From an uncultured Candidatus Saccharibacteria bacterium (GTDB lineage: Bacteria; Patescibacteriota; Minisyncoccia; RBG-13-40-8-A), in NCBI GenBank assembly GCA_965231075.1, contig OZ246412.1, positions 91,903-155,902 on the forward strand: DNA of 64,000 nt, in the 5' to 3' direction. Below, in pieces: positions 807 to 62,490 of the stretch (positions are counted from its first letter, which is position 1; each line of letters opens with the position of its first letter). The position numbers and the translations under genes are program-made. The notes below the pieces were generated by a model. It saw nothing but the letters and a program-made list of their open reading frames with translations, was not told the origin of the DNA and did not search any database.

Positions 807-1961
807 TTATTTTAGTTCTAAGTTAGAATTTGCGATAATTTTAGAATAATTTGCGATCGTCTTGTTTCCACTCAAATATCCCGCGATGGCAATCATTACG
901 CCATTGTCCATACAAAGATTTTTTGGAGGAACCAAAAAATCAATTTTCCCATGCCTATTGGCAGGCAGGAATTTACAATTTTCAATTTTCAATATGAATT
1001 GCTTGCGCAATTCTTCATTGGCGGCGACCCCACCAGAAAGAATAATCGTTTTGGCTTTGTATTTTTCTACTGCTTTAAGGGTTTTGGAAATTAAAACGTC
1101 AATTATTGCTTGTTGAGTTTCAGCACAAAGCGCTGAAATGATATCTGGTTCGAGGTTCGGGGTTCGAAGTTGATTTTTTTTCGAACCTCGAACTTTCAAC
1201 TCTTGAACTAAATACAATACTGCTGTTTTTAGTCCCGAAAAACTAAAATCGAAATTTTGATGGTTAATCATTGGGCGAGGCAAGGCAATTGATGTTTTAC
1301 CAACAAATTTGGTAGCTTCTTGCGAAATAAGGGGACCGCCTGGATATCCTAGCCCAAGCAGTTTGGCCACCTTATCGAAACATTCTCCCGCCGCATCATC
1401 TCTCGTTTCGCCGATAATTTTATAGCTTGCCCAGTTTTTTGCGGGGCTTCCGAATTTTTCCATCAATATTAATTGTGTGTGCCCACCGGAAACAAGTAAC
1501 GCTATGGCTGGCCTGCCCGCAACGCCAGCAAGCTGTCTTGCGTGGCGGGCGGGGAAATTAGAAATTCCGCTGCCAAAGGCAACGGTGATGTGTCCCTCTA
1601 AATGATTGACTGGCACTATTGGAATGTTATATTTATATGCCAATGCTTTTGCGAAATTAACCCCAATTAAAAGTGAGGGGATTAATCCTGGGCCGACAGT
1701 TACGGCGATTAAGTCAATTTTGGTTATTGGAATCCTTGCTTCTTTGAGTGCGGTTTTTAGGCACGGACCAATGTTTTTTAAGTGTTCGCGTGCGGCTAAG
1801 TTTGGCACAACGCCACCAAATGGTGCGTGAACTTTAATTTGTGAAGACACGACATTGGAAAGAATTTTAAAACTTGCCCCGCCTTTTTGCGGGTTCGCTT
1901 CTAAAATCGCAATTCCCGTGTCGTCACAACTTGTTTCAATGCCCAAGATAATCATAACCAA
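807..1961 (-). CDS. tsaD: tRNA N6-adenosine threonylcarbamoyltransferase TsaD (Kae1/YgjD family)
   Basis: MIILGIETSCDDTGIAIL N-terminus, LLVSGGHTQL, GLGYPGG and SGGVAANEELR motifs. 384 aa, longer than usual because of two GC-rich in-frame inserts. Confidence 0.9.
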   Translation of the reverse strand: MVMIILGIETSCDDTGIAILEANPQKGGASFKILSNVVSSQIKVHAPFGGVVPNLAAREHLKNIGPCLKTALKEARIPITKIDLIAVTVGPGLIPSLLIGVNFAKALAYKYNIPIVPVNHLEGHITVAFGSGISNFPARHARQLAGVAGRPAIALLVSGGHTQLILMEKFGSPAKNWASYKIIGETRDDAAGECFDKVAKLLGLGYPGGPLISQEATKFVGKTSIALPRPMINHQNFDFSFSGLKTAVLYLVQELKVRGSKKNQLRTPNLEPDIISALCAETQQAIIDVLISKTLKAVEKYKAKTIILSGGVAANEELRKQFILKIENCKFLPANRHGKIDFLVPPKNLCMDNGVMIAIAGYLSGNKTIANYSKIIANSNLELK

Positions 1962-4055: not shown

Positions 4056-5897
4056 ATGAAAAAAATTATGAACGAAGGCGAACATTTTCTCCACAAAAAA
4101 TATTCTGACCTCCACACTTCTCAACCCGTAGAACACGCACAACAAGAGAAAAAGAAAAAAGGAGAGTCAACATCACAAAAACCAGCAGATAAAATATCTG
4201 ACTTTCTTGAAGTAATTAAAAGAACCCACGGTCATCACGATGATCCACAAGTATTAGAAAGAATCAAAGAATATTATCATAAACAATACGTCATTAATCC
4301 CGAAGACGTCCCCGAATCATATTTTGATAATCAAAAACGTCTAGCCAGAGAACAAGGACACGGAGATATTGAAATCACCGACGAGATGCGAAAACAGGCC
4401 ACAGAGATAATCATTACCGACCAAGAATCAACTTTAGACAATTGGACGGAATATCTTTCTTCCAAAGATGCTGATGTTTATCCGGTCTGGGCAAGATACT
4501 GGGCATTCAGAAGCATGGTTAATCTTTCCACCTACGACAAAGAAAAGAAAGTATTCTCCAAACGAAAAAAAGATACAGTTGCTCCTTTTCCCGATTTAAA
4601 TCGTGAAGCATTGGCCAATGTCGTAGATATTATTACTAAAAAAGCAAAAAAAGAAAAAATATCATTAGCCGAAGATAATCCAGAATTACAAGAACTAATC
4701 AATCAAGAAAACTTCGGCAAGCTTTATGCTTACGCCATAGAAAAGATTACACCCACCGAAGTTAATGAATTAGAGATAACTGAAGGTAAATGGGTAAAAT
4801 ACAAACAAAATTCAGATCATATGCCATTGGTAGAATCTTTACAAGGATTTGGCACTGGTTGGTGCACAGCAGGAGAGTCAACGGCCGAGGCACAACTTAA
4901 AGGAGGTGATTTCTACGTCTATTACTCTAACAACAAACAAGGCAAGCCAATTATTCCCAGAATTGCTATCAGAATGCAGGGAAGCGAAATCGGAGAGGTG
5001 AGAGGCATTGCTCCAGATCAAAACTTAGATCCATACGTTAACGATATCGTTAAACAAAAACTACAACAGTTTCCTGACGGTAAACTTTACGAAAAGAAAC
5101 AAGCGGATATGAGGAAACTTACAGAAATCGATAACAAAAACAAAAAACAACAAGAATTAACCAAAGACGATTTAATTTTTCTTTACGAAATCGATTCTCC
5201 GATTCAAGGCTTCGGTTATCAAACCGATCCAAGAATAGTAGAAATACGAAAAACCAGGAATCCAATACAAGATGCACCAATTGTTTTTGAATGTGAGCCA
5301 AGTCAAATTGCCCACAATCAACAAGAAATCAATGAAAATACCAAAGCATATATTGGTCCGTTATTCGAAAATATTTTTCAATTAAATTTAGAGCACATTT
5401 ATACATCATTTCCGGAAAACAAAATCAGAAAGATGGAGACAACGATTGGAGGAAAAGACAAGACACAACTTTTAAAAGAGTTAAAAAAGAACAAAATCAA
5501 TATTGGTGATAATGCCGAATACATGATTAAGAGTGGTGATTTTACAACCTCCAAAAAACAAGAACAAATACAATTAATACGTTTAACAGTTGGTGACCTC
5601 GGTTTTCCAAATAGTGCCACAACACAACAAATATTCGATAAGGCCGAAAAATTAGGCCTAGAACTGTGTCCGGCGGAAACAGGTCCAAATTTACGACTAA
5701 ATTATTTAGATCAACCATTGGGAGAATGGTTTCGAATTGCGATGAAACAAATTACTGATGCCGATGGCTTCCCTCACGTGTTCAATCTGCATCACGTTGG
5801 CAGTGGTCTGTGGTTGGATGACTATTGGGCCCGTCCTGTCATCATGTGGAATTCTGCCCACAAGTTCGTATTCCGCTTTCGCAAGTTGAAAACTTAG
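4056..5897 (+). CDS. DGR target protein (613 aa) with C-terminal variable region
   Basis: Long ORF with no recognisable signal peptide. Its last ~45 codons (ITDADGFPHVFNLHHVGSGLWLDDYWARPVIMWNSAHKFVFRFRK) are an adenine-mutated copy of the TR. Confidence 0.8.
   Translation: MKKIMNEGEHFLHKKYSDLHTSQPVEHAQQEKKKKGESTSQKPADKISDFLEVIKRTHGHHDDPQVLERIKEYYHKQYVINPEDVPESYFDNQKRLAREQGHGDIEITDEMRKQATEIIITDQESTLDNWTEYLSSKDADVYPVWARYWAFRSMVNLSTYDKEKKVFSKRKKDTVAPFPDLNREALANVVDIITKKAKKEKISLAEDNPELQELINQENFGKLYAYAIEKITPTEVNELEITEGKWVKYKQNSDHMPLVESLQGFGTGWCTAGESTAEAQLKGGDFYVYYSNNKQGKPIIPRIAIRMQGSEIGEVRGIAPDQNLDPYVNDIVKQKLQQFPDGKLYEKKQADMRKLTEIDNKNKKQQELTKDDLIFLYEIDSPIQGFGYQTDPRIVEIRKTRNPIQDAPIVFECEPSQIAHNQQEINENTKAYIGPLFENIFQLNLEHIYTSFPENKIRKMETTIGGKDKTQLLKELKKNKINIGDNAEYMIKSGDFTTSKKQEQIQLIRLTVGDLGFPNSATTQQIFDKAEKLGLELCPAETGPNLRLNYLDQPLGEWFRIAMKQITDADGFPHVFNLHHVGSGLWLDDYWARPVIMWNSAHKFVFRFRKLKT
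5751..5886 (+). repeat. DGR variable region (VR)
   Basis: ~136 bp nearly identical to 6239..6376. Differences in the unambiguous core all fall at positions where the TR has A (VR has T, C or G), mostly in TR AAC codons. The 3' ~35 bp (gtggaattctg...ttccgctttcg) is conserved and IMH-like. Boundary nucleotides at each end are ambiguous. Confidence 0.8.
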
Positions 5898-6008
5898 AAA
5901 CCTTAAAGCTTTATAATTTAGTTTCTTTGATGCTTTGGTTCTTTGACACTTTGAAATTTTGTAGTTTTTTGATAAGATTGAATTGGGTAAATTGCATTGG
6001 ACGGTTGC

Positions 6009-6031
6009 GCCTGCTTTCTGGCAGACAGGGC
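6009..6031 (+). other. hairpin 1 between VR and TR
   Basis: gcctgctttctggcagacagggc, imperfect stem cctg..tctg/caga..cagg, followed by a T-rich run. Confidence 0.4.
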
Positions 6032-6080
6032 TTTTCAAAATTTTCTCAACAAACATAAATTGAGAGCGCAAACGGCTAAG

Positions 6081-6108
6081 CCTGCCTGTCGGCAGACAGG
6101 GTTTTTTG
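6081..6108 (+). terminator. intrinsic terminator-like hairpin 2 (stem shared with hairpin 1)
   Basis: cctgtc-ggca-gacagg stem-loop followed by ttttttg. Confidence 0.5.
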
Positions 6109-6238
6109 CGGAGTAGTTTATGTTTTGTTTCAAAAAAGAAAAAACTTGGTATATCGTGCTGGTTGATTTTAGATCACAAATAAAATACAGCCCAACATCT
6201 TAAAATTATGTGGGCAGTGCTATAGATGGCACGATATA

Positions 6239-6376
6239 TATAACTGATGCCGATGGCAACCCTAACGTGTTCAATCTGAATCACGATGACAATGGTCTGT
6301 GGTTGAATGACAATTGGGCCAATCCTGACAACAAGTGGAATTCTGACAACAAGTTCGTATTCCGCTTTCGAAAGTA
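6239..6376 (+). repeat. DGR template region (TR)
   Basis: Adenine-rich invariant copy of the VR. Sits in spurious ORF 6210..6596, where AAC (Asn) codons replace the varied VR codons. Confidence 0.8.
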
Positions 6377-6391
6377 TTATCTTTTCCGTGC

Positions 6392-6760
6392 TTATAAGGC
6401 ACGGTTTTTCTTTTCTGGATTATTTAAACTTTTTAGCCAACCACCAAATATTTTTCCAATTTCGTCTAACTTTAGTGCGATTTCTTCACATTGTTTGTGT
6501 GATATTAATTTACTCGTCCATGCCACAGAAACGAGAAACTTGAGAGCGTCCAATAAAAGAATACACTTTGGGATATTGGTTATTTTTATTTCTTGATTAG
6601 AAAAATAAGTCGTGTAAGTTAACTCCAAAAAATCCAAAAGCTTATTCTCTATTCTTTCGCCAATAGTATAACGATTGTGTTTCGGCATATGCGGAATAAT
6701 ATTTAGCCATATTAAATACGCTTCTTTGATTCTTTCCAAAATAGAAGTATTATTTGTCAT
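6392..6760 (-). CDS. avd: DGR accessory variability determinant (Avd, four-helix-bundle protein)
   Basis: 122 aa with the pattern ERIKEAYLIWLNIIPHMPKHNRYTIGERIENKLLDFLEL...ALKLDEIGKIFGGWLKSL, typical of bAvd / four-helix-bundle proteins. Lies between TR and RT. Confidence 0.75.
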   Translation of the reverse strand: MTNNTSILERIKEAYLIWLNIIPHMPKHNRYTIGERIENKLLDFLELTYTTYFSNQEIKITNIPKCILLLDALKFLVSVAWTSKLISHKQCEEIALKLDEIGKIFGGWLKSLNNPEKKNRAL

Positions 6761-7765
6761 ATGTATAATAATATCATATCAATTGAAAACTTGCTTTTAT
6801 CGTGGCAAGAATTTTTAAGAGGCAAGCGTAAAAGAAAAGATGTGGCGGAATTCTCTTTGAAGTTTTTTGATAATATTATAAAACTTCATCAAGAATTAAA
6901 ATTAAAAACCTATAAACATGGCGGGTATCAGGCGTTTAAAATAAATGATCCAAAACCACGCGATATCCACAAGGCCAGTGTTCACGATAGATTGGTTCAT
7001 CACGCCATATATCGAATTTTATATCCACATTTTGATAAAAAGTTCATTTTTGACTCCTATTCTTGCCGTTTAGAAAAAGGCACACACAAGGCGATAAATC
7101 GTTTTAGGAGTTATTATCGAAAGGTTAGCAAAAACAACACCAAAACTTGCTGGATTTTAAAATGCGATATTAGAAAATTTTTTGCTAACATAGATCATCA
7201 GGTTCTTAAAGATGTTTTGGCAAGACACATTAAAGATAAAAATGTTTTATGGCTCTTGGCACAAATTATTGACAGCTTTAATACGGAAAAGAAGAATGAC
7301 GTTGGCCTTCCGTTGGGCAATTTGACCAGCCAGCTTTTCGTAAATATTTATATGAACGAATTTGATCAATTCATTAAAAGAAATTTGAAAATCACACATT
7401 ATATTCGTTATGCGGACGATTTTATTGTTTTACACACGAACAAATCATATTTGGAAGCGATAATTATCATAATGTTTAAGTTTTTGAAAGAACAATTAAA
7501 GCTCGACCTGCATCCTGATAAAATTTTTATAAAAACTCTGTTTTCGGGAATTGATTTTTTGGGCTGGGTTAATTTTTATTATCATCGAATATTGCGAACC
7601 GCAACAAAACGTAGAATGTTAAGGAATATTAACAATAAACTTGAACCAGGGAGCATTGCATCGTATTTAGGATTGCTTTCGCACGGAAACACTTATGAGC
7701 TTTCGTCTCTTTTGACTTTATTATTTTTAAGGTATAATGATAAGTACGATGACAATTCAGGATAA
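6761..7765 (+). CDS. DGR reverse transcriptase
   Basis: RT motifs present, including YADDF (YxDD). Motif 4 reads LPLGNLTSQLF, the DGR-type replacement for the group II intron QGxxxSP. N-terminus has the DGR-RT-like IENLLLSWQEFLRGKRKRKDV. Confidence 0.9.
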   Translation: MYNNIISIENLLLSWQEFLRGKRKRKDVAEFSLKFFDNIIKLHQELKLKTYKHGGYQAFKINDPKPRDIHKASVHDRLVHHAIYRILYPHFDKKFIFDSYSCRLEKGTHKAINRFRSYYRKVSKNNTKTCWILKCDIRKFFANIDHQVLKDVLARHIKDKNVLWLLAQIIDSFNTEKKNDVGLPLGNLTSQLFVNIYMNEFDQFIKRNLKITHYIRYADDFIVLHTNKSYLEAIIIIMFKFLKEQLKLDLHPDKIFIKTLFSGIDFLGWVNFYYHRILRTATKRRMLRNINNKLEPGSIASYLGLLSHGNTYELSSLLTLLFLRYNDKYDDNSG

Positions 7766-8798: not shown

Positions 8799-9476
8799 AT
8801 GATTGAATTTAAAAACGTTTCAAAATTTTATAACGATTGTTCGGCACTAGACAAGGTAACTTTTAGTATTAAACCAAAAGAATTTGTTTCAATTGTCGGT
8901 CGTTCCGGTGCTGGCAAAACCACGCTTTTGAAAATGCTTTTAAAGGAAGAAGAACCAAGTGAAGGAGAAATTATTGTTGATGGCAGAGATGTTGGTAAAT
9001 TAAAAAAACACGACATACCAATATACCGTAGAAAAATTGGTTCAATTTTCCAGGATTTTAAATTATTACCCAATAAAACTGCCTATGAAAACATCGCCTT
9101 TGCTATGGAGGCGGCAGGAAGAACTGAACAGGAAATCGCGGTTGATGTTCCACAAATTTTAAATTTAGTAGAATTAACCGACAAAGCCAATAACTTTCCT
9201 TGTCAACTTTCTGGCGGAGAAAAACAAAGAGTGGCGATTGGCAGGGCATTGGTTCATAAACCAGACATTTTAATGGCCGACGAACCAACAGGAAACCTTG
9301 ATCCACTACACACCTGGGATATCATTAGATTACTTTGCCGAATTAATGAATTAGGAACTACGGTTATTTTGGCAACACACGATCGAGAAATTATTAATGC
9401 ACTAGGAAAAAGAGTATTAAGTTTTGATAAAGGAAGATTGATTAGGGACGAGGAGGTTGGAAGATATATTGTTTGA
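8799..9476 (+). CDS. ftsE: cell division ATP-binding protein FtsE
   Basis: Walker A GRSGAGKTT, ABC signature LSGGEKQRVAIGRAL, Walker B ILMADEPTGNLD. Position after prfB is conserved. Confidence 0.9.
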   Translation: MIEFKNVSKFYNDCSALDKVTFSIKPKEFVSIVGRSGAGKTTLLKMLLKEEEPSEGEIIVDGRDVGKLKKHDIPIYRRKIGSIFQDFKLLPNKTAYENIAFAMEAAGRTEQEIAVDVPQILNLVELTDKANNFPCQLSGGEKQRVAIGRALVHKPDILMADEPTGNLDPLHTWDIIRLLCRINELGTTVILATHDREIINALGKRVLSFDKGRLIRDEEVGRYIV

Positions 9477-9510
9477 AAATTGAAAATTAAAAATTGTAAA
9501 TTATATTTAT

Positions 9511-15099: not shown

Positions 15100-15194
15100 T
15101 TGGAACCTTTCCCGGTCGCACTGTATGTCTGCGGGACCTGGATTCTCCGCCCGAGGCGGACCAGCCTTGGGCTGGGAACCCTCATTAATTCTCA
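15100..15194. ncRNA. GC-rich structured element of unknown identity
   Basis: ~95 nt at ~60% GC in an AT-rich region. Several nested hairpins (ccgcc-cga-ggcgg; ccagcc-ttgg-gctgg; cccgg...cggg). No credible ORF. Lies directly 3' of tRNA-Gln on the minus strand and ~150 nt upstream of the minus-strand CaCA gene. Confidence 0.3.
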
Positions 15195-27225: not shown

Positions 27226-27297
27226 AAAAACTCTGCCCCGACCTTGCGTCGGGGTTGACAACAGATTATTATAATGTTAGTATTAGCGCAGCTATAT

Positions 27298-31894: not shown

Positions 31895-33898
31895 ATGGAC
31901 AAAAAGCAAGCCAAAGAAAGAATTGGGAAACTAAAAAAAGAAATTTGGAAGCACAGTTATGCTTATCATGTTTTGGATATGCCAGAAATTTCTGACGCCG
32001 CTTTTGATTCATTAAAAAATGAACTAGAAGAATTAGAGTATAAATTTCCCGAATTAATTACTTCTGACTCGCCAACTCAACGCGTTAGTGGGGAACCGTT
32101 GGATAAATTTCAAAAATTTCATCATGCCGCACCCATGCTTTCTTTTAATGACGCATTTAACAAACAAGAAATGCTTGATTGGCAAAATCGAAATAACAAG
32201 ATCGTTAAAAATTATGACAAAAATGGATATTATTGTGAATTAAAAATCGACGGCTTGGCAATAGAATTAATTTATGAAAAAGGAATTTTAAAAACCGGCT
32301 CAACCCGCGGAGATGGAATAATTGGTGAAGACATAACGCAAAACTTAAGGACCATTGCAAGCATTCCTTTAAAATTAATGAGCCAAGCCCCCGACAAATT
32401 AATTGTGCGTGGAGAAGTTTATTTAAAGACTAAAGAATTCGAAAGAATCAACAGGGAACTTGCACAGAAAAAAGAAAAAACCTATGCTAACCCCAGAAAT
32501 CTGGCTGCTGGTTCGGTTAGACAACTGGACGCCAGAATAACCGCACAACGCAAATTAGATTTTTTTGCCTATGCCCTGATCACTGACATGGGTCAAGAAA
32601 AACACCAACAAGAACATAAAATTTTAAAAGAAATTGGTTTTAAAACCGTACAATATAATAAGTTTTGTCTCAATCTCGAGGAAGTGGAAAAACTGAAGGA
32701 TTATTGGGAAATTGCTAGAGAAAAACTGGATTACGAAATTGATGGATTGGTTGTAATCACTGACGAAAATTCAATGTTTAAAAAATTGGGTGCGGTAGGT
32801 AAGGCGCCTCGAGGAGCAATCGCGTATAAATTTTCCGCTAAAGAAGGAACGACGATTATCGAAGACGTGATTTGGCAGGTTGGCAGAACGGGAGTTTTAA
32901 CTCCGGTAGCAGTATTAAAACCAGTAGATATTGGCGGAGCGACAATTTCACGAGCAACACTTCACAATTTAGATGAAATTAAAAGATTAGAGATAAAAAT
33001 AGGGGACACGGTAATTGTTGGTCGGGCAGGTGACGTGATACCCGATATTATTAAACCACTAAAAGAATTGCGGAACGGAAAAGAAAAAAACATAAAAGTT
33101 CCCTTAACTTGTCCAATTTGTGGTTCGAAAGTGACAAAAATTGGCGATGAAGTTGCTTATCGGTGTGCAGACAAAAATTGTGGTGCGATTCAAAGAGAAA
33201 AAATTTATCATTTCGTATCCAAAAAAGCATTTAATATAATGGGTCTCGGACCCAAGATTGTTGACAGATTTTTAGACGAAGGGTTGATCAAGGATTCTGC
33301 AGATTTGTTTTCATTAAAGGAAGAGGACATAAAACACTTAGAACGTTTTGCTGAAAAATCCGCTGAAAACATTATTAGATCGATTCAATCAAAGAAGGAG
33401 ATTAAATTAGAAAAGTTTTTGTTCGGTTTGGGGATTTTGCAAGTAGGGGAAGAGACGGCGTTTGATTTGGCAAGGGTTTTTGGAGACATAGAAAAAATTA
33501 AAAATTCTTCGATAGAAGAATTAGAAAAAATAAACGATGTCGGACCAAAGGTTGCAGAATCAATACATGCTTGGTTTAGAGAAAAAAAGAACTTAGAATT
33601 TTTGCAAAAACTTAATAAAGCTGGTATAACTATAATAAATCCCCCCATCACGCCAAGGCTTCGCGGGGCAAGTAAAATTCAAAACAAAGTATTTGTTCTA
33701 ACTGGGGAATTAGAATCAATGACCAGGGACGAAGCTAAAGAGAAGATTCGTGATTTAGGTGGCGATGTTTCCGGATCAGTTTCCAAGAATACAAGTTTCG
33801 TAGTCGCCGGATCGGAGCCGGGAAGTAAGCTTGAAAAAGCGCAGAAATTGGGCGTTAAAATAATAAGCGAAAACGAATTTTTAAAGTTAATAAAATGA
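31895..33898 (+). CDS. ligA: NAD-dependent DNA ligase LigA
   Basis: KxDG adenylation motif (ELKIDGLA), Zn finger CPICGS...C..C, HhH and C-terminal BRCT. Confidence 0.9.
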   Translation: MDKKQAKERIGKLKKEIWKHSYAYHVLDMPEISDAAFDSLKNELEELEYKFPELITSDSPTQRVSGEPLDKFQKFHHAAPMLSFNDAFNKQEMLDWQNRNNKIVKNYDKNGYYCELKIDGLAIELIYEKGILKTGSTRGDGIIGEDITQNLRTIASIPLKLMSQAPDKLIVRGEVYLKTKEFERINRELAQKKEKTYANPRNLAAGSVRQLDARITAQRKLDFFAYALITDMGQEKHQQEHKILKEIGFKTVQYNKFCLNLEEVEKLKDYWEIAREKLDYEIDGLVVITDENSMFKKLGAVGKAPRGAIAYKFSAKEGTTIIEDVIWQVGRTGVLTPVAVLKPVDIGGATISRATLHNLDEIKRLEIKIGDTVIVGRAGDVIPDIIKPLKELRNGKEKNIKVPLTCPICGSKVTKIGDEVAYRCADKNCGAIQREKIYHFVSKKAFNIMGLGPKIVDRFLDEGLIKDSADLFSLKEEDIKHLERFAEKSAENIIRSIQSKKEIKLEKFLFGLGILQVGEETAFDLARVFGDIEKIKNSSIEELEKINDVGPKVAESIHAWFREKKNLEFLQKLNKAGITIINPPITPRLRGASKIQNKVFVLTGELESMTRDEAKEKIRDLGGDVSGSVSKNTSFVVAGSEPGSKLEKAQKLGVKIISENEFLKLIK

Positions 33899-34185: not shown

Positions 34186-35618
34186 ACCTAAAAAACCTAA
34201 CAATTGAATCTGCGAGAAGGGGAATGATTAAAAAAGAATTTACTTGTACGGAGTTAGCACAAGCGTGTTTAGATAATATCAAAAAAGACAACAAAGAAAT
34301 AAATGACTTTTTGGAAATTACCGAAAAATTAGCACTAAAACAGGCAAAAAAGATTGACGACAAAATTGAAAGAGGAGAGAAAATAGAAGGATTAGAAGGA
34401 ATTCCAATTGCAATTAAGGACAATATTTTGGTGGAAGGATATAATTGTACCGCTGGCTCAAAAATATTAGAAAACCATAAAGCCGTTTATGATGCAACCG
34501 TGATTAAGAAACTAAAAGATGCGGGGGCGATAATTGTTGGTAAAACAAACCTAGATGAATTTGCCATGGGTTCTTCGACTGAAAATTCGGCATTTGGCGT
34601 TGTAAAAAATCCGCTTGATAAAAAAAGAGTTCCGGGTGGTTCTTCTGGTGGCTCGGCGGCAGCGGTTGTAGTGGGTCATTGTTTGGGAGCATTGGGATCT
34701 GACACAGGTGGATCTGTTCGCCAACCAGCGAGTTTTTGTGGAGTTGTAGGATATAAACCGAGCTATGGCACGGTTTCTCGATATGGATTAATTGCTATGT
34801 CTTCGTCCTTAGATCAAATTGGAACGTTTGCAAAAACAGTAGAAGACGCAAAATTAATTTTTGATACCATAAAAGGGAAAGACGAAATGGATTCCACAAC
34901 AATAGACGAGACAAGATACAAGATACAAGAGATAAGAGACAAACATTTAAGAATAGGAATTCCGAAGGAATATTTTGCGGAAGGCATTGATTTGAACGTT
35001 AAAGATAAAATTCAAAAAGCCATCAACGTTTTCCAAAACATGGGAGCCGAAATAAAAGAAATTAGCTTGCCATTAACCGATTATGCCTTGGCGGTTTATT
35101 ATATTATTATGCCAGCCGAAGTCAGTGCTAATTTGGCGAGGTTCGACGGAATTAAATACGGATATTCAGAAACTAAAAATCAAAAGTCAAAAGTTAAAAA
35201 TTTACTGGAACATTATCTAGAAACCAGGGCGAAAGGATTCGGTGATGAATCTAGAAGAAGGATAATTCTTGGCACTTATGTTTTATCGGCGGGTTATCGT
35301 GATGCTTATTATAATAAAGCTCAAAAAGTTCGAACTCTAGTTAAAAAAGAATTTGAAGACGCATTTAAAGAGGTTGATGTCATTATTACGCCGACCGCAC
35401 CAACTCCGGCGTTTGAAATTGGTGCGAAAAAAGATCCACTTTCAATGTATCTTTCAGATATTTACACTACACCAGCATCATTAGCTGGCCTTCCAGCAAT
35501 TTCTGTGCCTTGTGGCGAAATAAATAATTTACCAATTGGTCTGCAAATCATTGGACCACAATTTTATGATGAATTTGTTTTTGAAATCGCTCAAATTTTC
35601 AGGCAACTTTACCAATAA
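34182..35618 (+). CDS. gatA: Asp-tRNA(Asn)/Glu-tRNA(Gln) amidotransferase subunit A
   Basis: Amidase signature GGSSGGSAAAV, Ser-cisSer-Lys triad region. Confidence 0.9.
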   Translation: MNLKNLTIESARRGMIKKEFTCTELAQACLDNIKKDNKEINDFLEITEKLALKQAKKIDDKIERGEKIEGLEGIPIAIKDNILVEGYNCTAGSKILENHKAVYDATVIKKLKDAGAIIVGKTNLDEFAMGSSTENSAFGVVKNPLDKKRVPGGSSGGSAAAVVVGHCLGALGSDTGGSVRQPASFCGVVGYKPSYGTVSRYGLIAMSSSLDQIGTFAKTVEDAKLIFDTIKGKDEMDSTTIDETRYKIQEIRDKHLRIGIPKEYFAEGIDLNVKDKIQKAINVFQNMGAEIKEISLPLTDYALAVYYIIMPAEVSANLARFDGIKYGYSETKNQKSKVKNLLEHYLETRAKGFGDESRRRIILGTYVLSAGYRDAYYNKAQKVRTLVKKEFEDAFKEVDVIITPTAPTPAFEIGAKKDPLSMYLSDIYTTPASLAGLPAISVPCGEINNLPIGLQIIGPQFYDEFVFEIAQIFRQLYQ

Positions 35619-51649: not shown

Positions 51650-51691
51650 AAATTATTTTTACTTATTGAATCTTTCCCGACGTGTGAGTCG

Positions 51692-51731
51692 GGACCCCGA
51701 CCAATGCGTCGGGGTTTTCATATAATTTATG
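51692..51731. repeat. two tandem GC-rich hairpin repeats (CCCGAC-N6-GTCGGG family)
   Basis: cccgacgtgtgagtcggg and accccgaccaatgcgtcgggg, between divergent rpmE and rpsB. Confidence 0.6.
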
Positions 51732-53513: not shown

Positions 53514-53584
53514 GCCGACGTAGCTCAGTGGTAGAGCGCCTCCATGGTAAGGAGTAGGTCGTGAGTCCAATTCTCACCGTCGGC
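53514..53584 (+). tRNA. tRNA-Thr (anticodon GGT)
   Basis: Acceptor GCCGACG/CGTCGGC, anticodon loop ATGGTAA, T-arm GTGAG-TCCAATT-CTCAC. Confidence 0.75.
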
Positions 53585-53595
53585 TTATAATAAGC

Positions 53596-53636
53596 CCCGA
53601 CGTATAAGTCGGGGTCCCGACCAAAGCGTCGGGATA
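53596..53636. repeat. two tandem GC-rich hairpin repeats (CCCCGAC-N6-GTCGGGG family)
   Basis: gccccgacgtataagtcgggg and tcccgaccaaagcgtcggga, between the tRNA array and rpmG. Confidence 0.6.
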
Positions 53637-53812: not shown

Positions 53813-53882
53813 GAGGGGGTGTAGTTTAGTGGTAAAACGATGGTCTCCAACCCCGCAGCTGCGGGGCGATTCCTTCCGGGAC
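53813..53882 (+). other. degenerate tRNA-Trp-like element with embedded CCCCGC-AGCT-GCGGGG palindrome
   Basis: Shares the D-arm and anticodon 5' half (tgtagtttagtggtaaaacgatggtctccaa) with tRNA-Trp at 54148. The anticodon 3' stem and T-arm 5' part are replaced by ccccgcagctgcgggg. The acceptor strands are not complementary, so it cannot fold as a tRNA. Confidence 0.5.
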
Positions 53883-53896
53883 ATAATATTATTATT

Positions 53897-54157
53897 ATGA
53901 TGTATTATGTTTATATTCTTAGAAGTTTAAAAGATAAAAGATTGTATATTGGATATACTTCTGATTTAAAATTACGATACAAAGAACATTGCGATGGCAT
54001 GGTTAAATCCACTGCGAACAGAAGACCGCTAGAGTTAATCTATTATGAGGCCTATAAAAACGAAAAAGACGCGAGAAATAGAGAAAAATACTTAAAAGGC
54101 GGTGGCAAGGCACATAATAATTTAAAACAACAAATCGAAAATAGTATGGGCCTGTAG
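53897..54157 (+). CDS. GIY-YIG nuclease family protein (~86 aa)
   Basis: MMYYVYILRSLKDKRLYIGYTSDLKLRYKEH...NRRPLELIYYEAYKNEKDARNREKYLKGGG carries the GIY...YIG, Arg and Glu/Asn core. The ORF-track N-terminal extension reads through the tRNA-like element and was trimmed. Stop overlaps the first nucleotides of tRNA-Trp. Confidence 0.7.
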   Translation: MMYYVYILRSLKDKRLYIGYTSDLKLRYKEHCDGMVKSTANRRPLELIYYEAYKNEKDARNREKYLKGGGKAHNNLKQQIENSMGL

Positions 54158-54218
54158 TTTAGTGGTAGAACGATGGTCTCCAAAACCATTGGTGGGAGTC
54201 CGATTCTCTCCAGGCCCG
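54148..54218 (+). tRNA. tRNA-Trp (anticodon CCA)
   Basis: Acceptor GGGCCTG/CAGGCCC, anticodon stem ATGGT/ACCAT with loop CTCCAAA, T-arm GGGAG-TCCGATT-CTCTC, discriminator G. Confidence 0.8.
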
Positions 54219-54227
54219 ATTGCTTGA

Positions 54228-54274
54228 GATGGGTCTCCAACCCCGCAGCTGCGGGGCGATTCTCTCCAGGCCCG
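54228..54274 (+). repeat. partial tRNA-Trp-derived repeat (second copy of the palindrome-bearing element)
   Basis: agatgggtctccaa + ccccgcagctgcgggg + cgattctctccaggcccg. The last 18 nt are identical to the 3' end of tRNA-Trp; the middle carries the same 16-nt palindrome as 53851-53866. Confidence 0.55.
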
Positions 54275-62442: not shown

Positions 62443-62490
62443 CTCCGACCTTGCGTCGGGGTTGACACGTGTATTTTAGTGGATTAAAAT
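62443..62490 (+). promoter_or_regulatory. GC-rich hairpin repeat fused to mraZ promoter (TTGACA-N17-TAAAAT)
   Basis: ctccgaccttgcgtcgggg hairpin directly abutting TTGACA (62462-62467); 17-nt spacer; TAAAAT (62485-62490). ~85 nt upstream of mraZ. Confidence 0.55.

Follow-up and report, generated by a model that had tools for sequence, protein, structure and literature searches.

Short hairpin and heptamer-repeat insertions in the tsaD gene of a Candidatus Saccharibacteria bacterium as probable translated passenger loops

The tsaD gene of an uncultured Candidatus Saccharibacteria bacterium, located in a 64-kb window of contig OZ246412.1 (the window being the whole stretch of 64,000 nt analysed here), harbours five insertions that are probably translated, lineage-specific passenger loops derived from a fast-turnover population of hairpins and microsatellites acting on the DNA level in this clade of the candidate phyla radiation (CPR). 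This reading builds on the anatomy of the inserts, their location in loops, the dispersal of sister families to other genes and spacers, the nesting of hairpins in one another, a filled/empty site pair, the use of the same DNA in multiple reading frames, the discordance of insert types with the protein tree and paired changes in the hairpin arms. In-frame colonisation of genes by palindromic repeats has classically been tied to Rickettsia, and the literature searched, which leaves out most subscription journals, holds no description of in-frame palindromic elements in the CPR. A first-pass annotation of the same DNA had drawn attention to two palindromes in tsaD, here called insert 1 and insert 2, and had compared their behaviour with that of the Rickettsia palindromic elements (RPEs).

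Insertions in the predicted loops of TsaD

The tsaD product matches PF00814 over its full length (E=2e-82) and reaches E=3e-70 to 7e-65 against bacterial TsaDs of solved structure; besides the TTG start listed in Table 1, an ATG at 1955 can serve as an alternative start, giving the recorded product of 382 aa. Both the HxxxH motif for metal binding and the C-terminal Asp of the TsaD/Kae1 proteins are present, with H120/H124 of the NHLEGH motif and D352 of the CMDNG motif invariant in an alignment of 34 homologs, and the open reading frame (ORF) is intact. Solved TsaD chains measure 327-343 aa, compared to which the window protein has approximately 45 extra residues spread over five inserts. The first-pass annotation had taken the two palindromes as the explanation for the 384-aa length; they account, however, for only about half of the extra length because five inserts exist, the remainder being contributed by the peptides NPQKGGAS, SPAKNWA and FLPANRHG. 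Both palindromes were located, including the 22-nt spacer and the third partial copy of insert 1, and both are in frame without a counterpart in the E. coli protein, falling into gaps of the Aquifex, Salmonella/E. coli and Thermotoga structures.

The best 120 homologs, 55-100% identical and all labelled Patescibacteria/Candidatus or unnamed, range from 332 to 419 aa, and in an alignment of 34 of these 120 the length variation is confined to the same few sites, with odd recurring peptides. Equally, in a broad survey of 83 CPR/bacterial TsaDs from GTDB genomes, to which the window's own genome and its closest relatives do not belong, inserts of at least 5 aa gather at a handful of core positions, the insert-2 site being occupied in 24 and the insert-1 site in 14 of the 83 TsaDs listed. 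In the AlphaFold2 model of the window TsaD (mean predicted local distance difference test score, pLDDT, of 77.6), the pLDDT drops below 50 at residues 132-147, 171-176, 263-266 and 333-337, which are the insert sites, each between secondary-structure elements. The gaps in the solved TsaDs and the low-confidence loops of the model, into which all five inserts fall, are consistent with the predicted position of the inserts in surface loops, as had been anticipated.

Another type of insertion is seen in many distant CPR TsaDs (L010-L054), where a conserved AT-rich helical segment of 30-49 aa with the consensus LKK...ILERE..LF..LK.FL..Y follows core position 71. Missing from the window TsaD, this segment has the appearance of a true structural addition and not of repeat DNA.

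Anatomy of the inserts

An array of the heptamer GTTCGAR, duplicated in inverted orientation, is the most likely origin of insert 1. The arms of the insert form a perfect 12-nt inverted repeat (1148-1159 / 1182-1193), between which the partial third copy, GGTTCGAAGTT, resides at 1161-1171; read as heptamers, two units face three in the layout GTTCGAG GTTCGAA - aaaaaatcaac - TTCGAAC CCCGAAC CTCGAAC. The fold z-scores of both flagged inserts refer to 200 shuffles, of which 0-3 fold as well; insert 1 as single-stranded DNA reaches z = -4.5 (coding strand) and z = -4.9 (plus strand), with 0/200 shuffles as good. It is the sole perfect stem of at least 9 bp with at least 55% GC in the window, a scan too strict to see the hairpin families described below, for which a scan for 6-bp GC stems was used instead. 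The description of both palindromes as GC-rich suits insert 2 (0.74 over 1512-1553 vs 0.39 in the rest of tsaD) but not insert 1, which has a GC content of 0.46 overall and 0.58 in the arms in a gene of 0.42. Plain direct tandem arrays of the GTTCGAR 7-mer also occur in relatives, at other loops of their tsaD.

In a codon alignment of 13 close relatives (62-79% identity), orthologous, partly decayed versions of insert 1 occur only in L002 and L003, which in a tree of 264 ungapped core columns represent a clade distant from the window, while the window's nearest relatives carry at this place the unrelated palindrome H or no insert. Insert 1 is therefore either an old inherited insert that other lineages have replaced time and again, or has been subject to lateral exchange, two histories that we consider equally probable.

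Insert 2 forms a bulged hairpin of 15 bp (5 bp + 5 bp + 5 bp) over 1516-1553 with -16.4 kcal/mol and z = -3.2, in the interior of which lies the imperfect palindrome of 10/11 nt at 1523-1547. At this site, L092/P0083 carry family E, which has both ends of the insert (CCCCGCCCGCC and GCGGGCAGGC), and L001/L091 carry a family-B copy that shares the 5' end; the centre of insert 2 has no counterpart elsewhere. Shared ends combined with a unique centre fit a replacement, or a nesting, inside the loop of a resident hairpin, and it seems rather likely that insert 2 derives from the hairpin family resident there in relatives, having kept the ends while its centre was replaced.

The other three inserts are more heterogeneous. 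NPQKGGAS sits in the turn of a beta-hairpin in the predicted structure, and relatives carry the family-D motif CCCCGAC-N4-10-GTCGGGG at the N-terminal insert position. SPAKNWA, missing from 12/12 close relatives compared, weakly resembles the peptide GISPAKNGAS of a glycosyltransferase in L090. The family-A hairpin encoding FLPANRHG is flanked by a 7-nt tandem array (Table 1), of which a near-identical copy is found in the spacer between ftsE and ftsX.

Directly 5' of the insert-2 hot spot lies a shorter coding hairpin, hp0, which occurs in approximately one third of CPR tsaD genes and whose stems across CPR tsaD lineages read GTTGCC/GGCAAC, GCTGCT/AGCAGC, GCCGCT/AGCGGC or GCCAAC/GTTGGC. Among 50 distinct sequences with at least 45% identity, the arms pair in 54.3% of cells compared to 45.0 ± 2.0 upon shuffling (0/500), and the covariation score amounts to 0.316 vs 0.201 ± 0.025 for shuffled data (0/500), with slid partners reaching at most 0.194; in a subset of 30 sequences, the score is 0.472 vs 0.234. 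The covariation is suggestive, not conclusive, because the controls are not phylogeny-aware. If real, it means that pairing of the nucleic acid at hp0 dictates the covarying amino-acid pairs A/G, N/V and A/S.

Hairpin families and their turnover in relatives

In the alignment of the 13 relatives, all indel sites are made up of GC-rich hairpins or of A/T-rich tandem arrays of 7 nt with the units GAAATTC, GAAAATT, GTTCGAA and AAAAGTC. The hairpins belong to several families (Table 1), and different families take turns at the same site. Site 294 is occupied by family A in the window, L001, L084 and L088, by family B in L089/L090 and by family G in L091, and is empty in L002/L003/L085; site 127 contains B, E, J, K or heptamers, depending on the relative, and site 235 is without insert in L089/L092. 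The insert type is discordant with the core-protein tree. Comparison with CPR orthologs thus bears out the lineage specificity proposed before, as the insert segments are hypervariable among relatives, and the segments are missing from distant TsaDs.

Insert DNA from the 83 surveyed tsaD genes folds beyond shuffles with a mean z of -1.37 vs -0.18 for core segments, and z < -2 is reached by 36% of inserts vs 7% of core segments (Mann-Whitney p = 2e-5). Furthermore, the arms change in pairs, as seen at site 235 (ATGTTGGAC/GTCCAACAT vs ATGTGGGAC/GTCCCACAT) and in family B (CCGCC/GGCGG vs CCTCC/GGAGG). Stems that are kept paired via changes on both arms point to a process on the DNA or RNA level, not to selection on the peptide.

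Dispersal beyond tsaD

Families A, B, D and G are found not only in tsaD, but also in intergenic spacers and in the genes for LeuRS, LigA and glycosyltransferases. A family-B element at tsaD site 127 of L001 is identical in 41/41 positions to the element at tsaD site 294 of L089/L090, although the respective proteins are only approximately 67% identical, and further family-B copies reside in LeuRS and glycosyltransferase genes, in one intergenic spacer and in the LigA gene of the window. The LigA copy falls into the linker between the HhH region, which ends at aa 568, and the BRCT domain, which starts at aa 596, and shares its DNA family, though in a different frame, with the FAKASAGK element of the L001 tsaD. 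In total, family B encodes FAKASAGK, RLRQGFGGQAK and TPRLRGASK in its three forward frames and LPRRSLGEGGK when reversed; what is conserved is hence the DNA and not the peptide.

Nesting is seen in the LeuRS genes of L089 (2415-4523) and L090 (1465-3597), in which a family-A hairpin is placed inside a family-B hairpin, giving rise to the peptides KPSAFA[NPPTGEAR]ASADK and KPSAFAD[LPAGRQG]ASA; AATCCTA-type heptamer arrays (SQTLNPK) are present elsewhere in the same leuS genes. A filled/empty pair is provided by the spacer between ftsE and ftsX, where the sister genome L001 (5604-5660) carries a 19-20-nt family-A palindrome inside the heptamer array that is empty in the window. Neither at this site nor at tsaD site 294 was a target-site duplication found, the whole insert being the palindrome.

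In the window, GC-rich 6-bp hairpins are found in 25 places compared to 2.5 ± 1.6 in shuffles, mostly in intergenic regions and in many cases followed by a T-run. The family-G double hairpin, to which an intergenic double hairpin of the window is related, occurs in frame within the tsaD of L091/L024. A hairpin in gatA at 35388-35412 was not counted as an insert; it encodes a part of GatA (amidase) itself, with the peptide IITPTAPTPAFEI.

Two further repeats were observed in the window. A repeat of approximately 30 nt, GGTCTCCAACCCCGCAGCTGCGGGGCGATTC, containing a CCCCGC-agct-GCGGGG hairpin, flanks the tRNA-Trp gene (54147-54219) at 53840-53870 and 54230-54260. Equally, CCGACCTTGCGTCGGGGTTGACA occurs twice, at 27236-27262 and 62445-62470, as a family-D hairpin fused to a TTGACA hexamer, which may be a terminator-plus-promoter module.

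Table 1. Features of the window and hairpin families of tsaD and related loci
Feature	Position	Strand	Description
tsaD coding sequence	807-1961	minus	384 aa from TTG at 1961; PF00814
FLPANRHG insert	949-969	minus	aa 331-338; decayed family-A hairpin CCTGCCTGCCaatAGGCATGG inside heptamer array
7-nt tandem array	970-993	minus	TTGAAAA/GAAAATT; peptide LKIENCK; flanks family-A hairpin
Insert 1	1146-1193	minus	aa 257-272; peptide VRGSKKNQLRTPNLEP; inverted pair of GTTCGAR heptamer arrays
SPAKNWA insert	1428-1448	minus	aa 172-178; hairpin not significant, z = 0.3
Insert 2	1512-1553	minus	aa 137-150; peptide PARHARQLAGVAGR; GC-rich imperfect hairpin
hp0	1569-1583	minus	6-bp coding hairpin GTTGCC-ttt-GGCAGC; codons 127-131, VAFGS
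NPQKGGAS insert	1878-1893 (hairpin)	minus	aa 23-30; CCCGC-aaaaag-GCGGG, z = -2.0
Target ORF of retroelement	4056-5897		613 aa; no Pfam match
bAvd	6392-6760	minus	PF22296
Reverse transcriptase of retroelement	6761-7765	plus	PF00078
ftsE-ftsX heptamer array	9473-9502		intergenic; empty site in window
Double hairpin TCCGCCcgaGGCGGA CCAGCCttggGCTGG	15146-15175		intergenic; related to family G
Family-B element in NAD-dependent DNA ligase	33640-33685	plus	peptide PPITPRLRGASKIQ
Family-D double hairpin	51676-51715		intergenic; CCCGAC..GTCGGG CCCCGAC..GTCGGGG
Family-D triple hairpin	53578-53633		intergenic; directly after tRNA-Thr gene
Family A			ACCTGCCTGCCGGCAGGCAGGT; peptides LPAGRHG, TCLTGRQV, LPRRQAGQ
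Family B			CCCGCCTTCGCCAAGGCTTCGGCGGGCAAGCAAAATTCAAA; peptides FAKASAGK and others
Family D			CCCCGAC-N4-10-GTCGGGG; peptides PTKVGV, DPDFGRG
Family E			CCCCGCCCGCC...GCGGGCAGGC; peptide PARLASQREAGRQ
Family G			double hairpin TCCGCCcgaGGCGGATCCGCCtttGGCGGA; peptide SARGGSAFGG
Family H			25-nt perfect palindrome ATGTTGGACGTCGGACGTCCAACAT; site 235, L001 group
Family K			double hairpin TCCCGCgtaGCGGGATCCCGCcttGCGGGA; peptide VAGSRLAG

Weighing of alternative explanations

The inserts could have arisen purely locally, by 7-nt slippage and intra-strand template switching (quasi-palindrome correction), without any copying between loci. Such an origin would agree with the finding that inserts 1 and 2, like the family-H palindrome of the L001 group at site 235, have been seen in tsaD only, and with the arms of insert 1 consisting of tandem GTTCGAR units, the same unit that forms direct arrays in tsaD loops of relatives. 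Equally, quasi-palindrome mutagenesis by template switching yields compensatory arm changes, and the paired arm changes as well as the covariation at hp0 would match such products. An exclusively local process is nevertheless considered unlikely, as copies of families A, B, D and G are the same, or almost so, across sites, genes and spacers where the TsaD proteins differ by about one third, hairpins are nested in one another, the ftsE-ftsX spacer offers a clean filled/empty site and insert 1 is common to the window and the distant L002/L003, but not to nearer relatives. Even less probable is a selected function, be it of the stem-loops as cis elements (in translation pausing, RNase processing/stability or intragenic attenuation) or of the peptides as adaptive surface segments of CPR proteins in partner binding. 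Close relatives differ from one another in the family present at each site and in its length and sequence, and some have no insert; the peptides are unconserved with the same DNA read in three frames, and the insert regions of the predicted structure are of low confidence. Both flagged inserts lack a T-tail and fail as terminators, and a comparison with Rfam at gathering and E-value thresholds assigned them to no family, the only weak matches falling on the tsaD terminator at 748-797. Such a function is favoured by the survival of stems through two-sided changes, by hp0, which roughly one third of CPR tsaD genes contain with several stem sequences, and by the recurrence of hairpins at identical positions across many lineages. 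Finally, with 28 perfect 12-mers compared to 0.8 in shuffles, the window is rich in inverted repeats, which might favour an explanation by chance composition or by an artefact such as a chimeric assembly or a pseudogene with a luckily open ORF. The chance of this is minimal, as the ORF is intact with invariant catalytic motifs, at most 3/200 shuffles fold as well and the phenomenon repeats in dozens of independent metagenomes. In addition, the identical TsaD protein is encoded on three contigs, one of them an independent Logan assembly with identical DNA at all five inserts, and the inserts are therefore not assembly artefacts.

Among established categories of elements, an intrinsic terminator was rejected for inserts 1 and 2 because of the missing T-tail, neither insert being among the terminator-like sites in 650-2100. 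A miniature inverted-repeat transposable element was rejected because there is no target-site duplication at the ftsE-ftsX spacer or tsaD site 294, and the terminal inverted repeats typical of this class are equally missing beyond the stem itself. The hairpins do not resemble DNA uptake sequences either, with several unrelated stem sequences instead of one over-represented motif.

Several observations weigh against the passenger-loop interpretation. Neither insert 1 nor insert 2 has a second copy in the 64 + 9 kb of the window and L163 or in approximately 2.1 Mb of related loci, the own-genome DNA covered amounting to 73 kb of the 626-kb genome, and a blastn-short comparison of all five window inserts with 2.17 Mb did not retrieve paralogous copies. 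Further copies of GTTCGAGGTTCG, for which the first-pass annotation had proposed a search, did not turn up in the window, where four matches with at most 2 mismatches, three of them the element itself, stand against 2.6 expected by chance. Because neither insert has a second copy, their mobility is read from the sister families, and their membership in dispersed families is judged by the sequence of the shared ends for insert 2 and of the shared 7-mer for insert 1. Furthermore, nine other ortholog pairs of the window and L001 (RF, FtsE, FtsX, BipA etc., 82-95% identity) do not contain indels; insertions into coding DNA are thus rare, and tsaD stands out as an unusually permissive host, or a targeted one, for a process that is either strongly filtered or site-selective. 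No terminal inverted repeats beyond the stem, no target-site duplication and no candidate mobilising enzyme were found in the loci analysed. Maintenance of stems by compensatory change is also unexpected for purely decaying junk, and the covariation at hp0 was judged against controls blind to phylogeny.

Comparison with known repeat systems

Repetitive extragenic palindromic (REP) sequences are extragenic by definition and are mobilised by REP-associated tyrosine (RAYT, Y1) transposases. With these sequences and the bacterial interspersed mosaic elements (BIMEs), the hairpins described here share a length of 20-40 nt, imperfect palindromy, an occurrence singly as well as in clusters and a placement after genes, but copies are also found inside the tsaD, leuS, ligA and glycosyltransferase ORFs. 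A conserved GTAG-type head is not visible in families A, B, D, E and G, and no RAYT gene was seen in 73 kb of the 626-kb genome, in which no systematic search was made and not all ORFs were scanned. Many of the intergenic copies in the window resemble the SPRITE elements of S. pneumoniae or intrinsic terminators in having a GC-rich stem followed by a T-run; in contrast, the tsaD inserts have no T-tail and are situated inside an intact ORF.

Short GC-rich hairpins that occasionally reside in frame in coding genes, such as yeast var1, are also known from the GC clusters of fungal mitochondria. These clusters are short, mostly intergenic hairpins in an AT-rich genome, which merge and shuffle and whose stems are more conserved than their loops; the GC42 cluster has an AG target dinucleotide (PMC4478555), and a double-hairpin architecture is referred to there as known (Paquin et al. 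2000, as cited in PMC4478555). The CPR elements resemble them in the combination of short GC-rich hairpins with an AT-rich genome, double hairpins, merging and stem conservation, and differ in their bacterial rather than organellar host and in that no target duplication was seen. An association of fungal GC clusters with heptamer arrays is not known to us. By analogy, fungal mitochondrial GC clusters and double-hairpin elements may be the closest functional counterparts.

On the other hand, RPEs are approximately 150 bp in length, with each family encoding a conserved peptide (PMC10969869). Agreement with the published description exists with respect to palindromic repeats that populate spacers as well as genes, in frame, at fold-compatible positions of unrelated housekeeping genes (PMC10969869); equally, inserts 1 and 2 form stable hairpins (z = -4.5 and -3.2) and the tsaD inserts are in-frame insertions at loop positions of an intact ORF. 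Insert 1 is, however, 46-48 nt long, insert 2 42 nt and the sister families 20-41 nt, family B, with three forward frames and a reverse reading, has no conserved peptide, several families compete per site, a single gene contains five inserts and the host is a CPR bacterium of an unrelated lineage. The RPE-like behaviour noted in the first-pass annotation thus holds as an analogy for the class of element, and may extend to inserts 1 and 2, with respect to spacers and in-frame ORFs, surface loops, presence/absence and replacement, but not for size and peptide; by the description of RPE size and peptide, the tsaD elements are not RPEs.

Neighbouring loci

A diversity-generating retroelement extends from 4056 to 7765, with a variable repeat (5744-5886) and a template repeat (6233-6375) of 143 nt that are 85% identical and two 35-nt hairpin-containing copies downstream of the variable repeat (6001-6035 and 6072-6106). 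A link between this element and the inserts was considered and rejected, as nothing ties the repeat pair at 5744-6375 to tsaD.

A class-V aminotransferase gene (PF00266) occupies positions 1-639 of the window on the minus strand and continues in L163 (11317-12621). It has a GC content of approximately 0.63 (40-nt windows) in a 0.36-GC genome and is placed between tsaD and leuS only in this genome. The gene is probably a recent horizontal acquisition because L001 and L002 do not have it.

Proposed mechanism and implications

In the passenger-loop interpretation, the repeat population would consist of single, double or nested GC-rich stem-loops, approximately 15-45 nt in length, together with A/T-rich tandem arrays of 7-nt units, with the intergenic spacer as the usual habitat and copies arising in coding DNA as well. 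Spread or renewal would take place on the DNA level, and coding copies would survive only in frame, that is if stop-free, a multiple of 3 nt in length and placed in tolerant surface loops. The tsaD gene would offer six or seven such tolerant sites with a quick turnover by insertion, nesting, replacement and deletion. The inserts (peptides ARHARQLAGVAGR and VRGSKKNQLRTPNLEP) would be translated rather than removed, and the peptides themselves would be neutral. Candidate processes include copying between loci, arm-to-arm template switching, gene conversion among copies or selection for the fold.

A more far-reaching and tentative proposal, of which we are doubtful, is that an undescribed CPR system of mobile or self-renewing mini-hairpins and 7-nt arrays rewrites the loops of TsaD, LeuRS and LigA. 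The preferred targets of such a system would be heptamer arrays and the loops of existing hairpins, the stems would stay paired and pairing would dictate the amino-acid pairs at hp0 (A-N-F-V-G / A-A-F-S-S / V-A-F-G-N), driven by either a dedicated enzyme, for example an HUH nuclease specific for hairpins of single-stranded DNA, or a structural role of the hairpins.

If confirmed, in-frame colonisation by palindromes would extend to the CPR in a smaller, multi-family and fast-turnover form. This would account for a part of the lineage-specific insertions and low-complexity peptides in CPR proteins, insertions which affect annotation, alignment, phylogeny and structure prediction. Equally, hp0 would be a concrete case of DNA/RNA pairing constraining a protein sequence, and filled/empty sites could serve as markers in metagenomic populations when looking for active mobility and for the responsible enzyme.

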